A stretch of DNA of 64,000 nucleotides, from sequence record OR424388.1; one strand, given 5' to 3'. Of this stretch, positions 9,811 to 55,584 are shown one piece after another (position 1 is the stretch's first letter; every line of letters begins with the position of its first letter). The notes beneath the pieces were generated by a model, which searched no databases, had not been told where the DNA came from, and saw nothing but the letters and a program-made list of their open reading frames with translations. Made by a program: the position numbers and the translations under genes. This DNA is from Escherichia phage HEMP5.

Positions 9811-9840
9811 ATAGTACCATGGAAGAACATTCTTGTAAAC
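9811..9840 (-). promoter_or_regulatory. T4-type early promoter (member of the conserved promoter-leader cassette family)
   Basis: Minus strand TTTTCACAAAACTGTTTACA-N17-GGTACTATACAACTATCAACTACTGATACGGATTTGGAGAATAAAATG. Confidence 0.8.
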
Positions 9841-23362: not shown

Positions 23363-23656
23363 TCAGCTGTAACGATAACACTCGTTTGATTTGCGCTTAG
23401 CAACTCGTTGAGATGTATTATAATCAAAATCATCGTCAATGTAAACTGATTTTTTCAACTTTCTTACTTCACCACGCAGTTGACGATTCAATTCATTCTT
23501 AACCTCTGAATCAACACCTCGCATACGTCGCCATTTATCTGAACGAAAAATGTTTTCAACCATATCTTTATGACTTACCCCATCAGGAGCTTTACGCTTT
23601 CCGAAATAGTCATAATCACGAACTTTCAAGTCTTTACGACGATACGTTTTACCCAT
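23363..23656 (-). CDS. Hypothetical highly basic protein (97 aa)
   Basis: ORF track 23363..23701. The ATG at 23656 follows AAGGAA (MGKTYRRKDLKVRDYDYFGKRK...). Confidence 0.7.
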   Translation of the reverse strand: MGKTYRRKDLKVRDYDYFGKRKAPDGVSHKDMVENIFRSDKWRRMRGVDSEVKNELNRQLRGEVRKLKKSVYIDDDFDYNTSQRVAKRKSNECYRYS

Positions 23657-23861: not shown

Positions 23862-23891
23862 ATAATACCACGGTTTGAACTTGTTGTAAAC
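23862..23891 (-). promoter_or_regulatory. T4-type early promoter
   Basis: Minus strand TTTTCACAAAGTTGTTTACA-N17-(G)GTATTAT. Confidence 0.75.
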
Positions 23892-28211: not shown

Positions 28212-28350
28212 GTCCCATCTCCATATCAATTAAGTCATTTATCGTTGGTTCATTATATATTGTTTCTTCATCAGTGTAAACCGGTTCTTCCGGCTCTGGC
28301 TCTACAGTTTCCCATCTAGCCGCCCACCAAGGTTTTATAGCGTAATCCAT
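28195..28350 (-). CDS. Possible small acidic protein (51 aa)
   Basis: Hand translation MDYAIKPWWAARWETVEPEPEEPVYTDEETIYNEPTINDLIDMEMGHDYSR. Overlaps both neighbours by a few codons and fills a gap that is otherwise non-coding. Confidence 0.45.
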   Translation of the reverse strand: MDYAIKPWWAARWETVEPEPEEPVYTDEETIYNEPTINDLIDMEMGHDYSR

Positions 28351-31958: not shown

Positions 31959-31988
31959 ATTATACCACATCCTTGTGGCAAAGTAAAC
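31959..31988 (-). promoter_or_regulatory. T4-type early promoter
   Basis: Minus strand GTTTAC-N17-(G)GTATAAT. The -35 element overlaps the stop of the upstream gene. Confidence 0.75.
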
Positions 31989-33007
31989 TAGTTTAGTGCA
32001 TTTAGTGCATTGTTCAGTTTAGAACGTTGCTTCGTAAGATTTTTGACTTTTTCTTGAGCTTTTTCTAGCATCTTTTCAGCTTCTAACACTTCATTAGTTG
32101 CTTTAACGAGTTCATCATCTACTGCCTTGATAGACTTCTCAATCGCATCCGCGTGCCATTTTTCAACAGGTTTAAAACTCGGATTTTCAACAGGAAGAAA
32201 ATTCACTTTATTGAATTTCCATGTATCTTTATTACCTGAACTATACATCCAAAATTTAGGATCGTTTGATGAGTAATTGGATAAATTTAAGATATCTTGC
32301 ACTTCCTGCTTTTTCTCTTGCGGGACTTCGTCCTTTCTCAAAAAATCGTATTTAAATGAAACGATCATATCAAGTTCATACGTTGTTGTATGTTCCCAAT
32401 TTCGCTCAAAATGAGGTAAAATCTTAGACTGAACCGCGGCAACTACATCCATATACTTAAATGCTTCTGTCAACTGTGATTTAAGGCATTCACAAATTGA
32501 AAGAGAATTTTTTGTATTAGGTTTAAAGCTAATTCGTGCAGTTCTGTTATTTTCTTTTAATGGTCTTACTTCCATCTGAAGAGTATAACCATCAAATTTC
32601 AGATTCTTTAAGTTAATATCAGAACCTTTTAATCGACTAGCCGTCGACAAAATTTGCTTTAATTGTTTACGGAATAGAGCAATAAATCTCCACTCAATAC
32701 GATAATGATTTGGATTGAAAAATCCAGATGATAAATCGACCTTACTCTGACCAACACCTTGAACAAATAGAGGATTTTTATAATCAATAGTTTTACAGAA
32801 ATCAGTGAGCTGCTCACGAGCAGTCATTTGTGTAATATACCCCGCTTTACTAAAATGACGTAATAATTCACTGCTATTTAGATATTTAAAGTGAATAGCA
32901 CGATTAACTTTATCAGGGTCTAAATTATTTTCACACAAAAATGTCATAACATTACGAGTATCGCTGCCAGTACGAACCATATCTTCAATTTGAGAACGAG
33001 TTTTCAT
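31988..33007 (-). CDS. nrdC.5: Member 3 of the tandem paralog family (339 aa)
   Basis: ORF track. Ends ...KVKNLTKQRSKLNNALNALN. Confidence 0.82.
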   Translation of the reverse strand: MKTRSQIEDMVRTGSDTRNVMTFLCENNLDPDKVNRAIHFKYLNSSELLRHFSKAGYITQMTAREQLTDFCKTIDYKNPLFVQGVGQSKVDLSSGFFNPNHYRIEWRFIALFRKQLKQILSTASRLKGSDINLKNLKFDGYTLQMEVRPLKENNRTARISFKPNTKNSLSICECLKSQLTEAFKYMDVVAAVQSKILPHFERNWEHTTTYELDMIVSFKYDFLRKDEVPQEKKQEVQDILNLSNYSSNDPKFWMYSSGNKDTWKFNKVNFLPVENPSFKPVEKWHADAIEKSIKAVDDELVKATNEVLEAEKMLEKAQEKVKNLTKQRSKLNNALNALN

Positions 33008-33015
33008 GGTGTTCC

Positions 33016-33903
33016 TTAAGATTTAAGTAAATCAACAATTTTAATTAACTTTTCACGCTCAGATTTAGCTTTACTACTCAGTCCAGATAGTCTGAAAATT
33101 TCATCATCATATTGTTGAATAGAAATATTCAGCTCTTCAATCTGTTTATTAAAATAATCAATTTGTTCAGAATGTTTTTCGTTACTACGAACTGGTACAG
33201 GTTTTGTAGGCAATTTAGTTGAACTGGATTCATCCGGGCGATAAATTAAAACACAACTTGAACCAATAGGGCATTTTGCACCAGATGAATATTCTAATGT
33301 TCCAGCTTCTTTTAAAACTTCAAAAGCTAAACAGAGATGATGCCCCATATTAACATAATCTGTAGAGCGAGCTCTGATGTAATAATCATCGCCGCGAATA
33401 CTAAATTTAAAGCATTTAAGGTCTTCTGTATTATTGGTCTTAAAAATCATTTGTTTATCTAGACCTTTAGCTAATCGAGCGCCTAATGCTAATAATCGTC
33501 TTTGATTTTCCCACAAATCCGCAATCATTTGATCGAATGATAATTTTGGCATTAGTCGACCATAAAGGTCATATCCTTTATTATAATTACGAAGGATTTC
33601 ACTCGCATTAATACGAGACAATGCTCCAATTTTATTAAGGGCTTTCATAATGCGATTAGATAAACTCATTCCAGATCCGTTTGTTCGCTGCAAATGTTTT
33701 TCTAATCCAAATCCAATATCAACTTTAAACTTATCTAAAATTTCTGCATGAACATCTCTGTCAATAACATTCAAATCCAAAGTTGAGTTAAATCTATGAA
33801 AAAATTTATCTGGCTCTGCACTGCGAAATACAGTCCATTCATTTAATTTTTTATTAACTAAAGATTTAATTACTGCATTGACATTATTAATTACTACTGA
33901 CAT
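33016..33903 (-). CDS. nrdC.6: Member 4 of the tandem paralog family (295 aa)
   Basis: ORF track 33016..33924 begins at a TTG. The ATG at 33903 follows GTGAGGAAAAT (MSVVINNVNAVIKS...). Confidence 0.8.
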   Translation of the reverse strand: MSVVINNVNAVIKSLVNKKLNEWTVFRSAEPDKFFHRFNSTLDLNVIDRDVHAEILDKFKVDIGFGLEKHLQRTNGSGMSLSNRIMKALNKIGALSRINASEILRNYNKGYDLYGRLMPKLSFDQMIADLWENQRRLLALGARLAKGLDKQMIFKTNNTEDLKCFKFSIRGDDYYIRARSTDYVNMGHHLCLAFEVLKEAGTLEYSSGAKCPIGSSCVLIYRPDESSSTKLPTKPVPVRSNEKHSEQIDYFNKQIEELNISIQQYDDEIFRLSGLSSKAKSEREKLIKIVDLLKS

Positions 33904-33910
33904 ATTTTCC

Positions 33911-34318
33911 TCACTCAATTTCAATTTTACTAAATATACAGAATAAGATGGAACAGACTATATAAGCACCACACACAGATTGAACTAATACCATTCCAAA
34001 GAACCAAACAATATTATCAAACAATGTCTGTTTTACGTCGAAAGGACGTAAACTTACAGTAATATTATCACCTTTTTCTATTGAAGAATACATCTCTGGG
34101 GAAATATATTCACTAAATCTATAACCATCTTTGAGTTCATATACGGCAATAAACGATAAACTAGACCCTTTTCCTTGTGTTCCTGTAATGGTATTAACTA
34201 CAGTAACATCATAATCTTTATAATGCATATAATCATTAATTGCGTAATAACCATATGCAATTACTACACATAAACAACATATCAATAAATTCAATCTTTT
34301 AATTATCAACTGTTTCAT
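33911..34318 (-). CDS. nrdC.7: Membrane protein (135 aa)
   Basis: ORF track. N-terminal and C-terminal transmembrane segments. Confidence 0.78.
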   Translation of the reverse strand: MKQLIIKRLNLLICCLCVVIAYGYYAINDYMHYKDYDVTVVNTITGTQGKGSSLSFIAVYELKDGYRFSEYISPEMYSSIEKGDNITVSLRPFDVKQTLFDNIVWFFGMVLVQSVCGAYIVCSILFCIFSKIEIE

Positions 34319-34373
34319 AATAATCTCAATTAAAAGGGCTTAGAACCATTATACCATCCTTGGTATAAAGCGG

Positions 34374-34901
34374 TTATGCGAGTACCGTCTTTAACCGTTC
34401 TTCAAACTTCCGAAGAGTATTTTGGCGTTCAGCTCTTTGCTTTTTGTAAGTTTCAATACGCTCTGAAATGAGAGTGTATCGTTCATTTACTGATTCTTTC
34501 ATAAAATCAGGAATTTCACGAGAAGCTTTAATCTCGTCAAATTTATCAATAACAGCTTGCTCTTCAGCAATTAAGTTATCATACATTAAAATATCTTTCT
34601 TGATAAACTCAATATCTTCTTGAGTTACACGAGATAATTTAGATGCTTTATCCTTTTTGTACTGTTCGTTAGTATCACGAGACCAGTGTAATGTACGATT
34701 TTTATTCGTATTTTTGTAAATTTCTACAATACCGATCTCATCGATAATAACGATCCAATTCCAACGGGATTTGTAAATTTGTCCTCCATCAACAGTGATT
34801 TCACCTCCGATTGAGATGTCATTAAAGAACTTGCTTTGCGCTTCAGATTTAAATTTACCATCGTTGTAATTTACTAAGTTGAAAATATCTTTAGCGTTCA
34901 T
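34374..34901 (-). CDS. nrdC.8: Conserved hypothetical protein (175 aa)
   Basis: ORF track. GGAGGAACAGAAA Shine-Dalgarno after an early promoter. Confidence 0.8.
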   Translation of the reverse strand: MNAKDIFNLVNYNDGKFKSEAQSKFFNDISIGGEITVDGGQIYKSRWNWIVIIDEIGIVEIYKNTNKNRTLHWSRDTNEQYKKDKASKLSRVTQEDIEFIKKDILMYDNLIAEEQAVIDKFDEIKASREIPDFMKESVNERYTLISERIETYKKQRAERQNTLRKFEERLKTVLA

Positions 34902-34929
34902 TTTCTGTTCCTCCGTAGTTGATAGTTGT

Positions 34930-34959
34930 ATAGTACCACAGAGGAACAGTCTTGTAAAC
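34930..34959 (-). promoter_or_regulatory. T4-type early promoter (cassette family)
   Basis: Minus strand GGTTTACA-N17-GGTACTATACAACTATCAACTACGGAGG. Confidence 0.78.
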
Positions 34960-34961
34960 CA

Positions 34962-35264
34962 CTAAAAGAAACTTCTTTCACAATTTTTTCCACTGAACCA
35001 TGCGCTTACCGCTTTCTTAGTCTCAGGAGCAGTGTTATCCATAAACCATTCAAAGGCAGCCTTTTTATGATTCTGGAGGGCTTCTCGGGCTTTAATCTGC
35101 TCACGGTCTATTAACACTAACATATGAGCCTTTCTTGTCACCATGGGCTTCTTATGATTTTTTGAATACTCCCAGTCATTTGTCCATCGCATTGTCGTTG
35201 CGAACTTAAATACTGCTTCTTTAATTTTAGTTTCGTAAATTTCACGAGCCTTTGAGTATAACAT
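34962..35264 (-). CDS. nrdC.9: Conserved hypothetical protein (about 100 aa)
   Basis: ORF track 34962..35276. The ATG at 35264 has the best spacing from the GGAGG. Start uncertain by 4 codons. Confidence 0.72.
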   Translation of the reverse strand: MLYSKAREIYETKIKEAVFKFATTMRWTNDWEYSKNHKKPMVTRKAHMLVLIDREQIKAREALQNHKKAAFEWFMDNTAPETKKAVSAWFSGKNCERSFF

Positions 35265-35365
35265 CATTACCTCCATTCACCAGTTTAATTCTAGTCATCT
35301 TTTTAATGGCAGTCCATATAATCTATTTCTGAACTGCCTTTTTGTCATAGAAGTCCTCTTATGAA

Positions 35366-36334
35366 TTATTTCAGAAGAGTAACCTCAGCAATTTCTTCCC
35401 AACCGTTTTTGTCGGTCATAATAAAGTCAGCAAGATAAAGAGCAGTACGCAGTGAAACATTGCGTAAACGATTAACATTAACTTTCATCCATGATAATGC
35501 TTTATAAGTTTCTTCATCAGAAAGACCGCGCTTTTGCATCATGTCAGTTGAAAGAATAACATCTTCAACCCTGACCATAATTTCTTCATTAGTGTGAACA
35601 CCCAAATCCAAATAAACCGAGCGGGACACTAATGCTTGTAAATGTGGAGCAAGTTTAGTACCACGGTCTAATTCGCGGTCAATGTCAACGTTTGTGATAA
35701 AAACAATCGTTCCTTTAAATTCAAACTCACGCTCAATGCCTTTTTCTTCTAAGTAAGAAGACGCAGTGCTCCAGCAGACTTTACGGGTCTCTCCGGTGTC
35801 CAGAGCAGCTTTCAGAAGATTAAGAATGTCCATATCAGAGAAAACATCCACATCATCAATCAAAAGGACAGAATTCTCTTCACGATTATTCCAAAGCTGT
35901 TCATAAAGACCAATACCAGAGATTTTACCATTAATGCTTTTATATTCAATGTATCCAATATCATTTGCTTTATTTAAAGCTTTATCTAAAGAATACGTTT
36001 TACCAATGCCTGCCGCACCAGAGATAATTAATGAACGAATGTTTCCGTTAATAATACCATTCGTCATCATTCCCATAACATTAAATCTTTTATTAATGCG
36101 GGTTTTCATATCTTCATACGATTCTTTAACTTCTTCAACTTTTACACCATCATATGAAATGTCTGATTTGTAAACCCAAACACCGCGACGTTTACCGTCA
36201 ATTTCAACAAAAACTTTACCATCTCCTTGTGCATCTACTGGAGCATTATCTGGGAACCATTCGCCTAAGAGCTCAAAAGTTCCAGAGATTTCTTTACCGA
36301 AGTAGATACCCTTATTGATAGTTACAGTTTTCAT
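35366..36334 (-). CDS. nrdC.10: AAA+/P-loop ATPase (322 aa)
   Basis: ORF track 35366..36478, but its first 48 codons are promoter and leader. The ATG at 36334 gives MKTVTINKG... Walker A GAAGIGKT, Walker B VLLIDDVD. Confidence 0.85.
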   Translation of the reverse strand: MKTVTINKGIYFGKEISGTFELLGEWFPDNAPVDAQGDGKVFVEIDGKRRGVWVYKSDISYDGVKVEEVKESYEDMKTRINKRFNVMGMMTNGIINGNIRSLIISGAAGIGKTYSLDKALNKANDIGYIEYKSINGKISGIGLYEQLWNNREENSVLLIDDVDVFSDMDILNLLKAALDTGETRKVCWSTASSYLEEKGIEREFEFKGTIVFITNVDIDRELDRGTKLAPHLQALVSRSVYLDLGVHTNEEIMVRVEDVILSTDMMQKRGLSDEETYKALSWMKVNVNRLRNVSLRTALYLADFIMTDKNGWEEIAEVTLLK

Positions 36335-36368
36335 TTTATTCTCCAAATCCGTATCAGTTGATAGTTGT

Positions 36369-36398
36369 ATAGTACCATAAAGCTTTATGCTTGTAAAC
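36369..36398 (-). promoter_or_regulatory. T4-type early promoter (cassette family)
   Basis: Minus strand TTTTTTCACAAAATTGTTTACA-N17-GGTACTATACAACTATCAACTGATACGGATTTGGAGAATAAAATG. Near-identical to the copy at 9774-9860. Confidence 0.8.
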
Positions 36399-36420
36399 AA
36401 TTTTGTGAAAAAATTTTTGA

Positions 36421-36448
36421 AATAAAAAAGGGAGCCCGAAGGCTCCCT
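36421..36448 (-). terminator. Intrinsic terminator with UUCG loop after nrdC.11
   Basis: Minus RNA AGGGAGCC-UUCG-GGCUCCCU followed by UUUUUAUU, 1 nt after the stop. Confidence 0.8.
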
Positions 36449-36449
36449 A

Positions 36450-37463
36450 TCATTTATAATAACTTCGGTGGTTTTCAAGATAAACCTGTTCGAGGAAATT
36501 ATTCCAAAAGCTCATATCTACTGTTTTAGGCATACCATTCTTAGAAGCTTCAGTAGATGCTGCTTCTACTTGATCGACCACATCTTCCAAAAACTCTTGA
36601 ACTGTTTTAAATGGATGTTTACCCAACTTCACGTCGAGAATAAATGGAGCATCTTGGAGTGGATAAACCAAGTCACCAGTTTTGTAAATTTCCAATAGTT
36701 GAAGTCCACCACGACAAGCATGACTCAGAGCTTTCCAGTCAATACCTTCATTGGCTTCGGCCTTACGAGCACGTTCACCATATTCAGCATCTAATTTGTT
36801 CAGTGACTGCTTAAGCTCAATAAGAGAAAGCGTTGTCTGATATTTACGACCCAACACTGTGTAGAACGTTTGTGGACCTGTTTTCTCATGATTATGGAAC
36901 ACCCATTCACAGAATTCGTTTTCTGGAAGACGATGCTTAATATCTTCAACTTTAGTGCGACGCTGCTTAATAGAACCATCTTCTTGGTAATCAACCCATT
37001 GCTCAGGGATTTGATTAACTACTTTCAATACATCACGTAATGCAGCCAAACGAGAACCCTTGACACCGTATTTAGAAGCTTGCTTGCGGACATATCCTAA
37101 ATATGATTTCATGTTAGTCGTATAAAAACGAGAACGGTTGTCTTGAATAAACTTCCACACATCAGGCAAATCAGATTTAACCACTAGTTCAGGTGGAGTG
37201 TGAAGCATATCCAACGCTACAGTTTCACCATCTGCCGCTAATTTAAAGAAATACTTAAGACTGTATAGTTCATGGTCAATATCATCTTTAGTGTTTTTAG
37301 ATGATGTGTTGTTAGTGTTTTTACTCATGTGCTCTTTGACATTTCCGATAAGAATATCGCGAGCAGGAGGAACAAAGATTTCTTTAAAATCTACATCAGA
37401 TTCTGGGGTAGAAGTTCCATAAAGATGACTACCAAAATAGCTTTTCATTACTGTTTTCATCAT
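36450..37463 (-). CDS. nrdC.11: Pol-beta-superfamily nucleotidyltransferase-fold protein (337 aa)
   Basis: ORF track. N-terminal motif GSHLYGTSTPESDVDFKEIFV (G-S...D-x-D minimal NTase signature). Confidence 0.8.
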   Translation of the reverse strand: MMKTVMKSYFGSHLYGTSTPESDVDFKEIFVPPARDILIGNVKEHMSKNTNNTSSKNTKDDIDHELYSLKYFFKLAADGETVALDMLHTPPELVVKSDLPDVWKFIQDNRSRFYTTNMKSYLGYVRKQASKYGVKGSRLAALRDVLKVVNQIPEQWVDYQEDGSIKQRRTKVEDIKHRLPENEFCEWVFHNHEKTGPQTFYTVLGRKYQTTLSLIELKQSLNKLDAEYGERARKAEANEGIDWKALSHACRGGLQLLEIYKTGDLVYPLQDAPFILDVKLGKHPFKTVQEFLEDVVDQVEAASTEASKNGMPKTVDMSFWNNFLEQVYLENHRSYYK

Positions 37464-37921
37464 TCAGCCTTATATTCAATAACAGGACATACTTTAGCTT
37501 TACGCGCTTTTAAAAATTCGACGATAATAGATTTCTTGGGTTGAATAGGAGGTAAACCTTTATACGCCCTATCAATATTTTCTACATGTAAAGCATAATC
37601 CTTTTTCCATTTATAATCTTTATATTTTTCATGCAGTTGTGCAGGAATAACAAATGAACCAATAATAAGTAAAATAAGCAAAATGGCAAGTATAAATGCT
37701 GATGGAATAAGAGTCCATAAACTACCAAAAATAAGCCATTTCTGTATGATTTCTGCACAGATAATAGTTAGACCTGCGAGTATAGTACATCCGAAAAAAG
37801 AAACGAAAAATGTAGGGATAACAATAGACCAAAAGTATGCACACAGTGTCTTAGGTCGTTTCCATTCGTCGTTAAACAGTTTGAATAATTTATAGTGCCA
37901 AGAGTTTTCATTAATAATCAT
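37460..37921 (-). CDS. Multi-pass membrane protein (153 aa)
   Basis: ORF track. Three hydrophobic segments. Stop overlaps the nrdC.11 ATG (ATGA). Confidence 0.78.
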   Translation of the reverse strand: MIINENSWHYKLFKLFNDEWKRPKTLCAYFWSIVIPTFFVSFFGCTILAGLTIICAEIIQKWLIFGSLWTLIPSAFILAILLILLIIGSFVIPAQLHEKYKDYKWKKDYALHVENIDRAYKGLPPIQPKKSIIVEFLKARKAKVCPVIEYKAE

Positions 37922-37923
37922 AA

Positions 37924-38445
37924 TTATCCTTTCATTGAAGGTGTAACAGTTGTTAAATACTTAATCATAGCTTCAGCTTCTGATTTTGATAATGAAATTT
38001 CTCCATTGTTTTGACGAATAGAAATAAAATCCGGATGACGGTCACCACCAGCTTTTAAAACACACATATAAGTATCAGTTTCATCTTCAATATCTGAAAT
38101 GATTGAAGCAGTTCCACATGAATGTGGTTTTTGATAAATCAATACAGCTTTTCTTCCACCGTTTGACTGTTCATAAACTTTTAACACATCAAACAAATCG
38201 CTTCTTTTATCAATAGCTAAGATGTTGTTTTCATCTTCAATATTAAATCCTTCGGATACTTCATAAAGTGTCACCCATAAATCACCAATATCAATAACAG
38301 CGTTCACTTTTCCATGACTTTCAAGAGCATTACAAATTTTCTTAATTTCATCATAACTCATTTTAATAATATCATCTCCTTGAATAAGGAAGATGTCATT
38401 TTTAAATTCAACGCGAATTAAACCACTTCCACTTGAAATAAACAT
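37924..38445 (-). CDS. Hypothetical protein, tandem paralog A (173 aa)
   Basis: ORF track. Shares GFNIEDE and SKSEAEAMIKYLTTVTPSM with the next gene. Confidence 0.78.
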   Translation of the reverse strand: MFISSGSGLIRVEFKNDIFLIQGDDIIKMSYDEIKKICNALESHGKVNAVIDIGDLWVTLYEVSEGFNIEDENNILAIDKRSDLFDVLKVYEQSNGGRKAVLIYQKPHSCGTASIISDIEDETDTYMCVLKAGGDRHPDFISIRQNNGEISLSKSEAEAMIKYLTTVTPSMKG

Positions 38446-38451
38446 ATTTCC

Positions 38452-39009
38452 TCACTTTGAAATCATAGTTGGAATGACAGAATCAAGATAAGTCTTTAGC
38501 GCAATAGCTTCGTCTTTGGTAAATGTGACAATATGCGATCGAAAATCATCAATTTGACGAATAGTTAAGACATCTCCATCTTCATAACATTTTGATACGT
38601 TTAAAACAGTTTCATCATTATGATTGCAAGCGTTAGTAATAATAGCATTGCAATTTTTAAACCATTTTAAACTATGTTTTCTTTCATTAGAATAATAAAA
38701 ATATTTAATCTTATCTATAAAACTGTCCCAATGAATAACTGATAGGCATATTGACTCGCTTTCAATATTAAATCCTGGGCATGAAGAATAAAAATGAATT
38801 TTGTGCTCATCATTGATGCTTACTATTTTATCAGTATAAGGATATTCAATTTGGGTTAAATGAATGATTTCACTAGGCGTAAAATATAGCATATCGTCTT
38901 CTTGTGTCAAACGATACATATTATTTACTTTTTCTATAGCTAATTCACCAAAAAGCGGACTAACTTCTAATACTAATCGTTTCATATTGATTCTCTTCGA
39001 CTCACCCAC
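38452..39009 (-). CDS. Hypothetical protein, tandem paralog B (185 aa from GTG, or 177 aa from ATG at 38985)
   Basis: ORF track. The GTG at 39009 lies 9 nt after AAGGAG. Shares GFNIESE and TKDEAIALKTYLDSVIPTM with paralog A. Confidence 0.78.
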   Translation of the reverse strand: MGESKRINMKRLVLEVSPLFGELAIEKVNNMYRLTQEDDMLYFTPSEIIHLTQIEYPYTDKIVSINDEHKIHFYSSCPGFNIESESICLSVIHWDSFIDKIKYFYYSNERKHSLKWFKNCNAIITNACNHNDETVLNVSKCYEDGDVLTIRQIDDFRSHIVTFTKDEAIALKTYLDSVIPTMISK

Positions 39010-39011
39010 AA

Positions 39012-39116
39012 TTACATACTCCTTTGAATAATATCAATAATGTTGTTCACCAGATTATAAGTAAACATTGGATAATTATATTGAATCATCACATACACAA
39101 CAAACAAAACTTTCAT
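39012..39116 (-). CDS. Possible 34-aa leader peptide/ORF
   Basis: First ATG after the early promoter at 39145-39174. MKVLFVVYVMIQYNYPMFTYNLVNNIIDIIQRSM. Confidence 0.3.
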   Translation of the reverse strand: MKVLFVVYVMIQYNYPMFTYNLVNNIIDIIQRSM

Positions 39117-39144
39117 TCTCTTCTCCTTGGCAGTTGACAAGATT

Positions 39145-39174
39145 ACTATATCATAACCTTGCCAACTTGTAAAC
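39145..39174 (-). promoter_or_regulatory. T4-type early promoter
   Basis: Minus strand GGTTTACA-N17-(A)TATAGT. Confidence 0.7.
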
Positions 39175-39176
39175 CA

Positions 39177-39332
39177 TTAAATGACGTTTTCAATAAAATT
39201 CTGAAGCTTTGTGTGAGCATCAACCATGATTTTCATTTCTTCCTTTGCGAAAGCTGTACCTCTTTCCCTAGCAGAATACTCATAGTCAGAAACTGCATTA
39301 GCATATTCTTCAATTAGCTTCATTAAAAACAT
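39177..39332 (-). CDS. Small helical protein (51 aa)
   Basis: Hand translation MFLMKLIEEYANAVSDYEYSARERGTAFAKEEMKIMVDAHTKLQNFIENVI. Fills the gap between 39340 and the promoter. Confidence 0.5.
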   Translation of the reverse strand: MFLMKLIEEYANAVSDYEYSARERGTAFAKEEMKIMVDAHTKLQNFIENVI

Positions 39333-39339
39333 CTGCTTT

Positions 39340-39534
39340 TCAGTTTTCATTATTCCACCTAATCATTTCAAGATATTGAACTAACTTAGCTTTGGATTTA
39401 TCCAAATCCTTTTTAGCTGCTTCTATACCATCGTATGAGTATCCTTCACAATGCTCAACTGCTAATTGATATGAATCTATTTCAACATCACGTGCTAATT
39501 TAATAATTTTTTCAAACTGTTCACGTGTTAGCAT
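39340..39534 (-). CDS. Small helical protein (64 aa)
   Basis: ORF track. Confidence 0.7.
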   Translation of the reverse strand: MLTREQFEKIIKLARDVEIDSYQLAVEHCEGYSYDGIEAAKKDLDKSKAKLVQYLEMIRWNNEN

Positions 39535-39536
39535 AC

Positions 39537-39740
39537 TTAAACTCTCGTATTATGATCGATAATTTCATCAAGAAACATATCTAAAGCTTCTACAGCATTA
39601 TCAACTTTAGCTTCAAATTTTTCAATACCTTTATTTGCAATGCCTGCCGAAAACCAAGCAAAGTCACTAAGTTCCTCATCTGCTTTGCGAATTAAAGCTA
39701 CCAATTCTTTAATTTTATCTGCTTGTTCAATTCTAGCCAT
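39537..39740 (-). CDS. Small helical protein (67 aa)
   Basis: ORF track 39537..39776. The ATG at 39740 ([19 protein letters not shown]...) overlaps the upstream stop (TAATG). Confidence 0.65.
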   Translation of the reverse strand: MARIEQADKIKELVALIRKADEELSDFAWFSAGIANKGIEKFEAKVDNAVEALDMFLDEIIDHNTRV

Positions 39741-39928
39741 TATTCCACCACATATGAAAGAGAGAATATTGCACACGCCATATGAGTTGCAGCTTCATCA
39801 CACATATCATAACGTTTCTTAAGAAGTTCTACAAGTTCTTCACTAGTAACTTCATCCATGTCGACGAAAAAATCACCATTAATGATGACGTAGATATTTC
39901 CTTCTTGATTGAGTGCTTCAATTTTCAT
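39740..39928 (-). CDS. Small acidic protein (62 aa)
   Basis: ORF track 39740..39973. The ATG at 39928 follows GAGGAGAACATC and an early promoter ([19 protein letters not shown]...). Confidence 0.65.
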
Positions 39929-39956
39929 GATGTTCTCCTCTTTATCCGATGGTTGT

Positions 39957-39986
39957 ATAGTATCACAGCTCAAATTGAAAGTAAAC
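39957..39986 (-). promoter_or_regulatory. T4-type early promoter
   Basis: Minus strand AGTTTAC-N17-(GA)TACTATACAAC. Confidence 0.75.
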
Positions 39987-40002
39987 TGGTAAAATGAAAA
40001 AA

Positions 40003-40018
40003 GTCTCCCGAAGGAGAC
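40003..40018 (-). terminator. C(UUCG)G hairpin after rI.-1
   Basis: Minus RNA GUCUCC-UUCG-GGAGAC followed by a U-rich run. Confidence 0.7.
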
Positions 40019-40023
40019 TAATG

Positions 40024-40410
40024 TTATTCGAGGGAAAGAAGATATTTGCTCTGGTAAAACATCCCAGTAATATCATCTATCGTGCTTTGAATAGCTGGAG
40101 GCATTTCTTTATAAATGCTGTTAGATTGGTCTAGTATGTGATCAATCATTCTAATTGTGTCGGTAGGAAGTTTACTGGCATCTGGAATAGAAGGCGTGTA
40201 TTTTCTACCAGAATACCCCAAATATTGCTCACCAAATTTATCAATCAAATCTGGCAACTCAGAGAAAATAAAATCGTATGCTTTGTGTCTAGCATAACTT
40301 TTAGTTTCAAAATGCGCAGAATGAAAATAAGCTTGTGCAGCCATTAATAAACCTAAGTATTCATCTGCCTTTGAAGGTTTTCCACTTTGTGAAAAGTCGC
40401 TGAATTTCAT
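40024..40410 (-). CDS. rI.-1: Conserved hypothetical protein adjacent to rI (128 aa)
   Basis: ORF track. ATGA overlap with the rI stop. Position as in T4. Confidence 0.8.
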
Positions 40411-40700
40411 TCAGTCTCCAATTTAATGTTCATAATTCTAGCGTATGATTGTGCCATCTCCGCGCCTCGTTCTATACATTCAAAATCGGAAGAGCACGGG
40501 TCATTTTTATAAGTCGTTCGCATAAAACTATAGAACTGTTCAGATGATTCTACGCTTTTATTTTCAAAAAGCATATAAACGTGTCTAATACCAGATTCCA
40601 TAAATTTATCAAAATGAGGATCGACATTCGCTTCAATTGGTGGAGATAAAGCAAACGCTAATCCTAGCATGGCAAATAGTGCCGTTGCTTTTAAGGCCAT
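40407..40700 (-). CDS. rI: Lysis-inhibition regulator RI (antiholin)
   Basis: 97 aa, MALKATALFAMLGLAFALSPPIEANVDPHFDKFMESGIRHVYMLFENKS... Matches T4 RI. Confidence 0.95.
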   Translation of the reverse strand: MALKATALFAMLGLAFALSPPIEANVDPHFDKFMESGIRHVYMLFENKSVESSEQFYSFMRTTYKNDPCSSDFECIERGAEMAQSYARIMNIKLETE

Positions 40701-44149: not shown

Positions 44150-44179
44150 ATTATACCACAGTCAAGAGGAAAAGTAAAC
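44150..44179 (-). promoter_or_regulatory. T4-type early promoter for regB
   Basis: Minus strand TGTTTAC-N17-(G)GTATAAT, then a GAGGAG Shine-Dalgarno. Confidence 0.78.
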
Positions 44180-55224: not shown

Positions 55225-55254
55225 ATAGTATCACAACTAAAACCCTATGTAAAC
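55225..55254 (-). promoter_or_regulatory. T4-type early promoter
   Basis: Minus strand TTTCACAAAGTTGTTTACA-N17-(GA)TACTATTACCCTATC. Confidence 0.75.
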
Positions 55255-55554: not shown

Positions 55555-55584
55555 ATAGTATCACTATCTCATCAGCATGTAAAC
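55555..55584 (-). promoter_or_regulatory. T4-type early promoter
   Basis: Minus strand TTTCACAAAGTTGTTTACA-N17-(GA)TACTATTATCTCATC. The upstream 32 nt are identical to those of the promoter at 55225-55254. Confidence 0.75.

Follow-up and report, generated by a model that had tools for sequence, protein, structure and literature searches.

NrdC.11 of T4-like phages, a predicted long-form RlaP nucleotidyltransferase and candidate fill-in enzyme of tRNA repair, encoded next to an independent AAA+ ATPase gene

The neighbouring genes nrdC.10 and nrdC.11 lie on the minus strand of a 64,000-nucleotide stretch of Escherichia phage HEMP5 (sequence record OR424388.1; hereafter the window, from whose first base positions are counted). 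Both represent real, conserved protein families, and they are independent early genes that are neighbours only by virtue of synteny within the T4 lineage, not a new two-gene system. Taking both together, we consider it somewhat probable that NrdC.11, a predicted RlaP-family nucleotidyltransferase (NTase) of the DNA polymerase beta (Pol-beta) type, provides the fill step of phage tRNA repair, and that NrdC.10 is an AAA+ ATPase acting in DNA transactions, a role that we infer less firmly than that of NrdC.11. This account draws on family membership, catalytic-residue conservation, fold, transcription signals and gene neighbourhoods. The window belongs to a Tequatrovirus; its bases 35000-38000 share 99.9% identity with Yersinia phage PYps32T and are matched at 95-99% identity by 482 other T4/T2-like phage records.

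36450..37463, minus strand: nrdC.11 coding sequence, 337 aa; predicted RlaP-family (PF10127) Pol-beta nucleotidyltransferase of the long subfamily
35366..36334, minus strand: nrdC.10 coding sequence, 322 aa; predicted N-terminal beta domain, long helix, AAA+ core and helical lid

NrdC.11 as a long-form RlaP nucleotidyltransferase

The assignment of nrdC.11 to the NTases and to RlaP, and the idea that RlaPs fill in lost nucleotides, are already published. Nolan et al. 2006 (PMC1524935) reported that nrdC.11 matches the NTases of COG3541 and nrdC.10 AAA proteins, and a preprint of December 2025 assigns T4 NrdC.11 by name to cluster 5 of the sequence similarity network (SSN) of the RlaP family (PMC12776372). 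The initial annotation of this DNA, which gave nrdC.11 an unknown role, therefore understates the literature, in which T4 NrdC.11 is already named as an RlaP; full-text searches of the literature brought up no functional study of nrdC.11 or nrdC.10.

Against the Pfam RlaP family (PF10127), NrdC.11 scores 43.9 bits with a cut-off of 23 (E = 3e-11), the match being limited to residues 7-135 (profile positions 23-142 of 249), and PHROG 388 ('nucleotidyltransferase') spans the whole protein. An exhaustive search for homologues returned 3502 cluster representatives at E<=1e-3, of which 830 had E<=1e-30; nearly all of the 150 listed are full-length, with 300-360 aa. Every homologue in a listing of annotated matches carries PF10127. 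The features of the protein on which the assignment draws are as follows.

37386..37433, minus strand: NTase signature GSHLYGTSTPESDVDF, NrdC.11 residues 11-26 (G11-S12...D23-x-D25)
37275..37277, minus strand: D63, the probable third carboxylate, in strand 62-68 and the conserved KNTxDDVDxE segment
36837..37001, minus strand: beta-rich insertion, residues ~155-209, inside the C-terminal helical domain
36453..36824, minus strand: C-terminal helical bundle, residues ~214-336, with invariant R231, K244, H248 and R251 (GERA...DWKAxSHAxR)

Across an alignment of 60 NrdC.11-type sequences, with identities down to 33%, residues G11, S12, G16, S22, D23, D25, N57, D63, Y132, R231, K244, H248, R251 and P268 are invariant and D61 is nearly so. 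The core consists of the Pol-beta G-S/DxD motif and D63, and the C-terminal half bears the invariant basic residues. In a profile alignment (hhalign), D63 falls on the invariant Asp of canonical short RlaPs, and it is probably the third catalytic carboxylate. The AlphaFold2 (AF2) model is confident and joins an N-terminal NTase fold to a C-terminal helical domain, the two forming a cleft of which the helical bundle is probably the side that binds nucleoside triphosphate (NTP) and RNA. The beta-rich insertion (strands 155-159, 165-169, 185-192, 196-203 and 206-209 of the model) is the most variable part of the family, being variable and gapped in the 60-sequence alignment, and lies outside both the Pfam RlaP match and the hhalign alignment to short RlaPs. 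The Pol-beta, RlaP-type assignment put forward in the initial annotation is borne out by the Pfam score, the invariant catalytic residues and the fold. The signature that it placed at the N-terminus is there as well, followed by ~311 residues and not by the ~280 that it gave. On these grounds of profile and model we take nrdC.11 to encode a long-form RlaP Pol-beta NTase.

Sequence searches of the PDB with NrdC.11 or NrdC.10, as single proteins or as alignment profiles, gave nothing significant, and NCBIfam gave only noise-level matches, to MntA and Hda. The PADLOC models gave no hit for either protein at E<=1, which leaves the suggested links to retrons and to cyclic oligonucleotide-based anti-phage signalling systems (CBASS) without support. 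Many homologues of both proteins are labelled 'thioredoxin' in database records, and one 'HNH homing endonuclease'; a Pfam scan of NrdC.10 and NrdC.11 found no thioredoxin domain in either, and the 'thioredoxin' labels appear to have been propagated from the gene name nrdC.x.

Gene neighbourhoods of NrdC.11 relatives and a fill step in tRNA repair

We gathered 156 viral and 80 bacterial or archaeal loci around full-length NrdC.11 relatives, with flanks of 6 kb, and as a control set 80 phage loci centred on nrdC.10. A gene for RNA healing or sealing was present within 6 kb in 20 of the 156 viral NTase loci and in none of the 80 control loci (Fisher p = 2.7e-4); after clustering of the NTases, such loci made up 12 of 84 clusters at 90% identity and 9 of 55 at 70%. 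The viral relatives found in co-directional repair strings have 40-47% identity. Two phage contigs (L248 and L255) carry, co-directionally, a fusion of an HD-phosphohydrolase with a P-loop kinase, a T4-type Rnl1 (PF09511) and, as the last gene, RlaP, while a third (L077) has the order RlaP, RNA ligase (PF09414), PNKP; RtcB is encoded in seven further viral NTase loci. The HD-kinase healing enzyme of L255 and L248 differs from T4 Pnk in architecture.

Among the bacterial loci, RtcB, Ro60, Pnkp or Hen1 occurs within 6 kb in 15 of 80. In about 18 of the 80 a long NrdC.11-type RlaP (~320 aa) is followed directly downstream by a canonical short one (~255-280 aa, PF10127 over its full length, E = 3e-51), and several of these tandems sit inside RtcB/Ro60 or Pnkp/Hen1 operons, as at L110, which carries Ro60, RtcB, long RlaP, short RlaP, Hen1 and Pnkp, and at L143, with Hen1, Pnkp, long RlaP and short RlaP. 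The two forms may have distinct roles or make up a heteromer.

L255:2850-6927 and L248:3366-6924, IMG/VR phage contigs: compact RNA-repair cassettes
L110:6004-7746, L143:5929-7790, L141:4063-5873 and L148:6004-7787, bacterial: tandem long and short RlaP genes

New in this analysis is that the gene-neighbourhood evidence comes from the T4-type long subfamily itself and includes operons in which T4 Rnl1-type ligases are encoded. The association with RNA ligase and repair genes holds for the NrdC.11 subfamily as a whole, not for this window. Genes for nicotinamide adenine dinucleotide (NAD) salvage (NAMPT, phosphoribosyl pyrophosphate (PRPP) synthetase-like, Nudix), primase-helicase and DNA polymerase also lie near some distant NTase homologues; they follow no consistent pattern and we judged them to reflect lineage synteny.

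T4 is the phage in which RNA repair was discovered. Whether phages can answer anticodon nucleases of the RloC type, which take out a nucleotide and leave Pnk and Rnl1 to reseal a defective tRNA, has to our knowledge been an open question since 2008. Burroughs and Aravind reportedly gave RlaP its name in 2016 and predicted that it restores lost nucleotides before ligation. RloC cuts out the wobble nucleotide, which is expected to thwart the repair of tRNA by T4 Pnk and Rnl1 (PMC3458546). For jumbo phages the nucleotide-restoring prediction has been repeated, with a distribution of RlaP that mirrors that of RNA ligases (PMC7824862). The 2025 preprint studied two Pseudomonas enzymes, PfRlaP and PaRlaP, which add one or two nucleoside monophosphates (NMPs) to an RNA 3'-OH, not to a 3'-phosphate, accept any NTP and also deoxy-NTPs (dNTPs), do not act on DNA or protein, depend on Mn2+ (the preferred ion) and favour the 5' half of cleaved tRNA (PMC12776372). 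In vitro they label rRNA, full-length tRNA and single-stranded RNAs with little NTP specificity; RlaP also raises the aminoacylation of a tRNA short of one anticodon-loop nucleotide, and has been proposed to counter ribotoxins that excise nucleotides, RloC among them (PMC12776372). The same authors point out that the 3'-OH end chemistry is unsuited to ligation by RtcB (PMC12776372). Together, this biochemistry and the gene neighbourhoods of the subfamily strengthen the RNA-repair hypothesis that the initial annotation had raised, and make such a role likelier for the NrdC.11 subfamily.

For NrdC.11 we infer an enzymatic activity, a substrate and an order of action with Pnk and Rnl1 that would run as follows. 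An anticodon nuclease would cut the tRNA, leaving a 2',3'-cyclic phosphate and a 5'-OH, with RloC-type enzymes also removing a nucleotide; Pnk (PseT) would convert the cyclic phosphate to a 3'-OH and phosphorylate the 5' end; NrdC.11 would add one or two NMPs to the 3'-OH without a template; and Rnl1 would close the 3'-OH/5'-P nick, so that part of the repaired tRNAs would regain a full-length anticodon loop. Since Rnl1 is a 5'-P/3'-OH ligase, the end chemistry would fit at every proposed step, and transcription from an early promoter would suit a function required ahead of late translation. PYps32T encodes both PseT (3'-phosphatase/5'-kinase) and an RNA ligase, in keeping with such a pathway.

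Several observations speak against a fill step for NrdC.11. The gene can be deleted from T4 in the laboratory (PMC9825161). The RlaPs assayed biochemically, PfRlaP and PaRlaP, are of the cluster-1a type, other than the NrdC.11 subfamily. In hhalign, NrdC.11 aligns with the tandem canonical short RlaPs over residues 3-132 only (probability 92%, E = 6e-7), its C-terminal half giving no detectable alignment to them; the C-terminal domain and beta insertion are subfamily-specific, and the substrate could differ. About 85% of NTase loci have no repair gene within 6 kb, and the window itself contains no RNA repair gene, RtcB, Hen1 and Ro60 included. In the PYps32T genome pnk and rnlA lie ~82 kb from nrdC.11.

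NrdC.11 might instead act on other RNA 3' ends, in the repair or maturation of CCA ends of host or phage tRNAs (the phage presumably carries tRNA genes of its own, as is established for T4) or in the tailing of host mRNAs or small RNAs during takeover. The broad labelling of rRNA, full-length tRNA and single-stranded RNAs by the assayed enzymes, with its low NTP specificity, would suit such a role, and the subfamily-specific C-terminal domain could redirect specificity. We nevertheless regard it as unlikely: the genes that accompany the subfamily encode end-healing kinases or phosphatases and RNA ligases or RtcB, implying internal breaks that are later ligated, and of the two pieces of a cut tRNA the assayed RlaPs favour the 5' half, not the one with the acceptor end. 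It is very unlikely that NrdC.11 is not an RNA-end enzyme at all and serves anti-defence by making an oligonucleotide or nucleotide signal or decoy (as Hailong HalB does) or by nucleotidylating a protein or small molecule (as MntA and aminoglycoside NTases do), because its structural likeness to HalB, KNTase and 3c18 is that of the generic Pol-beta fold at 8-16% identity while its sequence places it in PF10127, its relatives' neighbourhoods indicate RNA ligation, PADLOC gave no hit, and the assayed RlaPs modified neither protein nor DNA. If NrdC.11 is a fill-in enzyme, T4-like phages carry a three-step pathway of healing, filling and sealing. The neighbourhood evidence for the long subfamily, and a C-terminal half unlike that of the assayed enzymes, are what our analysis adds to the published picture of this protein; the distinction of the long subfamily is a modest new lead.

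NrdC.10 and the separation of the two genes

Both ATPase motifs that the initial annotation had named in nrdC.10 are present.

35996..36019, minus strand: Walker A GAAGIGKT, NrdC.10 residues 106-113
35846..35866, minus strand: Walker B LLIDDVD, NrdC.10 residues 157-163

Homologues of NrdC.10 numbered 1007. In an alignment of 33 of them, with identities of 54-89%, G106, G109, G111, K112, T113, D160 and D161 are invariant, position 108 varying between A and P. N215, R238 (in the box VII 'SRS'), R291 and R296 are invariant too, and these would correspond to the sensor-1 Asn, the arginine finger of box VII and the lid/sensor 2 arginines. The AF2 model (predicted local distance difference test score, pLDDT, 88.9) shows a beta domain (residues 1-62), a long helix (73-95), an AAA+ alpha/beta core and a helical lid; a Foldseek search with it gave 158 PDB matches at E<=1e-3, and the top ones listed are all AAA+ proteins (Orc1, Cdc6, RFC, RuvB, Hda, dynein, NSF). 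According to this model NrdC.10 has an AAA+ fold. PHROG 1250 (function not annotated) matches the protein at E = 2e-166, with weak clamp-loader matches besides. The Pfam comparison proposed for both proteins thus gave a family above threshold for nrdC.11 and none for nrdC.10, for which it is the model that supports the AAA+ fold.

The 80 loci centred on nrdC.10 (L160-L239) and one further locus from Vibrio phage D509 (L240) connect this gene with recombination and replication. A UvsW-like superfamily 2 (SF2) helicase is encoded in 46 of the 80 loci, in 48 copies that are all on the nrdC.10 strand, and in 42 of the 60 loci with sufficient downstream flank; its best PDB match is T4 UvsW (2oca, E = 1.6e-23). 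UvsY lies near nrdC.10 in 22 of the 80, RecA/UvsX in 26 and gp32 in 17, and environmental T4-like phages (e.g. L192, L197, L178) have a conserved string gp32-UvsX-UvsY-...-NrdC.10-UvsW. Three conserved proteins of ~166, 157 and 231 aa (PHROGs 11279, 11758 and 11058; functions not annotated) follow this string. The D509 homologue (L240:6989-8002) lies within a replication module, among genes for gp41 helicase, gp45, gp44/62, regA, dUTPase, a UvsW-type helicase, RNase H, gp55 and gp46/47. Because uvsW, uvsX, uvsY and gene 32 are its neighbours in distant phages, we tentatively propose that nrdC.10 encodes an initiator- or clamp-loader-like AAA+ ATPase of DNA replication or recombination, not of RNA repair. 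A more specific and more speculative version makes it a hitherto unrecognised AAA+ cofactor for recombination and the restart of replication by the T4-type machinery, loading or remodelling UvsW or filaments of UvsX, UvsY and gp32; it is suggested by the co-directional position of nrdC.10 between uvsY and uvsW in distant T4-like phages and by the initiator/clamp-loader-like core with a beta domain of its own.

A number of points tell against this role. One environmental clade (median pairwise identity 59%) accounts for most of the uvsW linkage, which could be a matter of inherited synteny, and in T4-type genomes nrdC.10 does not adjoin uvsW. The top Foldseek matches, with a probability of 1.0, have a template modelling (TM) score of ~0.4, which is generic for AAA+ proteins, and 10-16% identity. 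No Pfam or NCBIfam family reaches its threshold for NrdC.10: the best Pfam matches, AAA_14, AAA_22 and AAA_16, stay below their gathering scores (in 30 of the 33 members), and NCBIfam Hda gives E = 0.017.

It is possible, if doubtful, that nrdC.10 encodes an NTPase resembling the origin recognition complex (ORC) or the signal transduction ATPases with numerous domains (STAND) and used for host takeover or anti-defence, or else a dispensable accessory, with the uvsW linkage being inherited. The sub-threshold Pfam matches would agree with this, since they include nSTAND3/5 along with AAA_16, AAA_22 and AAA_14, as would the position of the gene among unannotated genes of the hyperplastic nrdC-tk region, its absence from many T4-like phages, and the near confinement of its uvsW-linked homologues to one clade. 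However, NrdC.10 is small (322 aa) and has none of the sensor or effector domains typical of STAND proteins, its linkage to uvsW, uvsY, uvsX and gene 32 holds at 46-60% pairwise identity, the D509 homologue lies in a replication module that is arranged differently, and, as is the case for AAA+ initiators and clamp loaders, the box VII 'SRS', the sensor-1 Asn and the arginines of the lid do not vary.

As the initial annotation had noted, a terminator and a promoter separate the two genes.

36422..36448, minus strand: intrinsic terminator, an 8-bp C(UUCG)G hairpin and U-run, 1 nt past the nrdC.11 stop codon
36369..36398, minus strand: T4-type early promoter of nrdC.10, GTTTACA-N17-TACTAT, with TG upstream of the -10 element

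Both lie within the 115-bp spacer. The hairpin, with arms AGGGAGCC-UUCG-GGCUCCCU before the U-run (36448-36429), has a free energy of -17.7 kcal/mol (z = -3.67; none of 200 shuffles was equally stable). The pattern GTTTACW-N17-TAYWAT has 14 exact matches in the window, all on the minus strand, where 0.03 would be expected, and the promoter in the spacer is therefore a genuine member of the early-promoter set of the phage. Because of these two signals nrdC.10 and nrdC.11 are not one transcription unit: nrdC.11 is the last gene of an upstream unit and nrdC.10 the first of a new one.

Comparison of loci leads to the same separation. nrdC.10 lies downstream of nrdC.11 in 35 of the 79 loci of our first NTase set, at a gap of 112-2290 bp, and in 6 of the 78 of the second, all of them close Tevenvirinae relatives; it never occurs within 6 kb of nrdC.11 relatives below ~50% identity. 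In the loci centred on nrdC.10 the NTase is present in 3 of 80 and absent from 77, and on two large phage contigs the two genes are ~35 kb and ~150 kb apart. No locus among the viral NTase and nrdC.10 sets has both nrdC.10 and an RNA repair gene, and in an earlier survey nrdC.10 was found in three of six T4-like phages and nrdC.11 in five (Nolan et al. 2006, PMC1524935). That the two genes form a two-component module, an ATPase-driven NTase directed against RNA-targeting defences, is highly improbable and already largely refuted by the comparative data: the genes are both early, and are adjacent and co-directional in the window and in those 35 viral loci, but they are divided by a strong terminator and a separate promoter, their spacing varies with inserted open reading frames (ORFs), and their adjacency is lost as NTase identity falls. 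A functional meaning of their adjacency is not supported, the two being separate units, adjacent only in close T4 relatives and with different conserved neighbourhoods. This takes nrdC.10 out of the RNA-repair story and leaves its tie to the uvsW recombination genes as a second modest lead.

The 14 promoter matches map the starts of early transcription units across the window.

167-196, 9811-9840, 23417-23446, 23862-23891, 28252-28281, 31959-31988 and 34930-34959, minus strand: first seven early-promoter matches
36369-36398, 39957-39986, 44150-44179, 47190-47219, 51009-51038, 55225-55254 and 55555-55584, minus strand: last seven early-promoter matches
39957..39986, minus strand: of these matches, the one nearest upstream of nrdC.11

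The promoter at 39957-39986 likely starts the unit that ends with nrdC.11, in the order small ORFs, two PHROG-1502 paralogues, a 153-aa membrane protein and nrdC.11. The paralogues (37924-38445 and 38452-39009, minus strand; 173 and 185 aa; function of PHROG 1502 not annotated) are in tandem, with 26% identity (E = 8e-10), and closely precede the genes for the membrane protein and NrdC.11. The latter two genes overlap in the sequence ATGA (37460-37463), which contains the start codon of nrdC.11 and the stop codon of the membrane-protein ORF, and there is no HNH ORF between them in the window; in T4, mobD has been reported at the nrdC.11/mobD.1 junction (PMC2988022). The nrdC.10 start is the ATG at 36334 (MKTVTINKG), with a GGAG Shine-Dalgarno sequence 8 nt upstream, and the resulting 322 aa agree with the length of homologues (322-327 aa); a 370-aa form from the TTG at 36478, given by mechanical ORF calling, was rejected, since it would extend across the terminator into the end of nrdC.11.

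The spacer between the two genes measures 112-119 bp here and in some relatives and reaches 2290 bp elsewhere, with added small ORFs (e.g. L002, L014, L015, L023, L027), and within the hyperplastic region the junction of terminator and promoter appears to be a hot spot for insertions. An Rfam scan of 33000-40500 returned only a sub-threshold L20_leader match (36414-36577, minus strand; 27.2 bits with a gathering score of 58.7, E = 0.04), which spans the end of nrdC.11 and the terminator, owes its score to the hairpin of the latter and is in all likelihood noise.

Comparison with known systems

The assayed RlaPs, PfRlaP and PaRlaP, share with NrdC.11 membership of PF10127, the G-S/DxD/D core, a conserved insert between the catalytic strands, the combination of an NTase with a C-terminal helical domain, and an association with RtcB, Pnkp/Hen1 and RNA ligases. 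They are unlike it in that NrdC.11 belongs to a separate sequence cluster, in that only its first ~130 residues align with the Pfam model or with canonical short RlaPs, and in that its type is longer (310-350 versus ~255-280 aa) and has the beta-rich insertion in the helical domain. The frequent tandem arrangement of long and short RlaPs in bacteria suggests non-redundant roles.

The response of T4 Pnk and Rnl1 to PrrC is known from the same phage lineage as NrdC.11, PYps32T encodes both enzymes, and homologues of Rnl1 and of polynucleotide kinase adjoin NrdC.11-type genes in other phages. The 3'-OH product of Pnk would suit RlaP, and the 3'-OH product of RlaP would in turn suit Rnl1. The classical pathway has two enzymes and mends a simple nick, whereas NrdC.11 would add a fill-in only after the loss of a nucleotide, as caused by RloC; pnk, rnl and nrdC.11 are unlinked in T4-type genomes, and the tie to nrdC.11 is one that we deduce. 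Bacterial operons of RtcB-Rsr(Ro60) and Pnkp/Hen1 contain full-length NrdC.11-like genes, at 33-41% identity, whereas phage nrdC.11 stands alone in a cassette of unannotated genes. With Hailong HalB, KNTase and 3c18, which belong to other families and have other substrates (dATP oligomerisation, aminoglycosides) at 8-16% identity, NrdC.11 has the fold alone in common. NrdC.10, for its part, differs from Orc1/Cdc6, RFC, Hda and RuvB in its own N-terminal beta domain, a TM score of ~0.4 and identities of 10-16%, and resembles them in its Walker A and B motifs, in N215, R238, R291 and R296, and in a Foldseek probability of 1.0.

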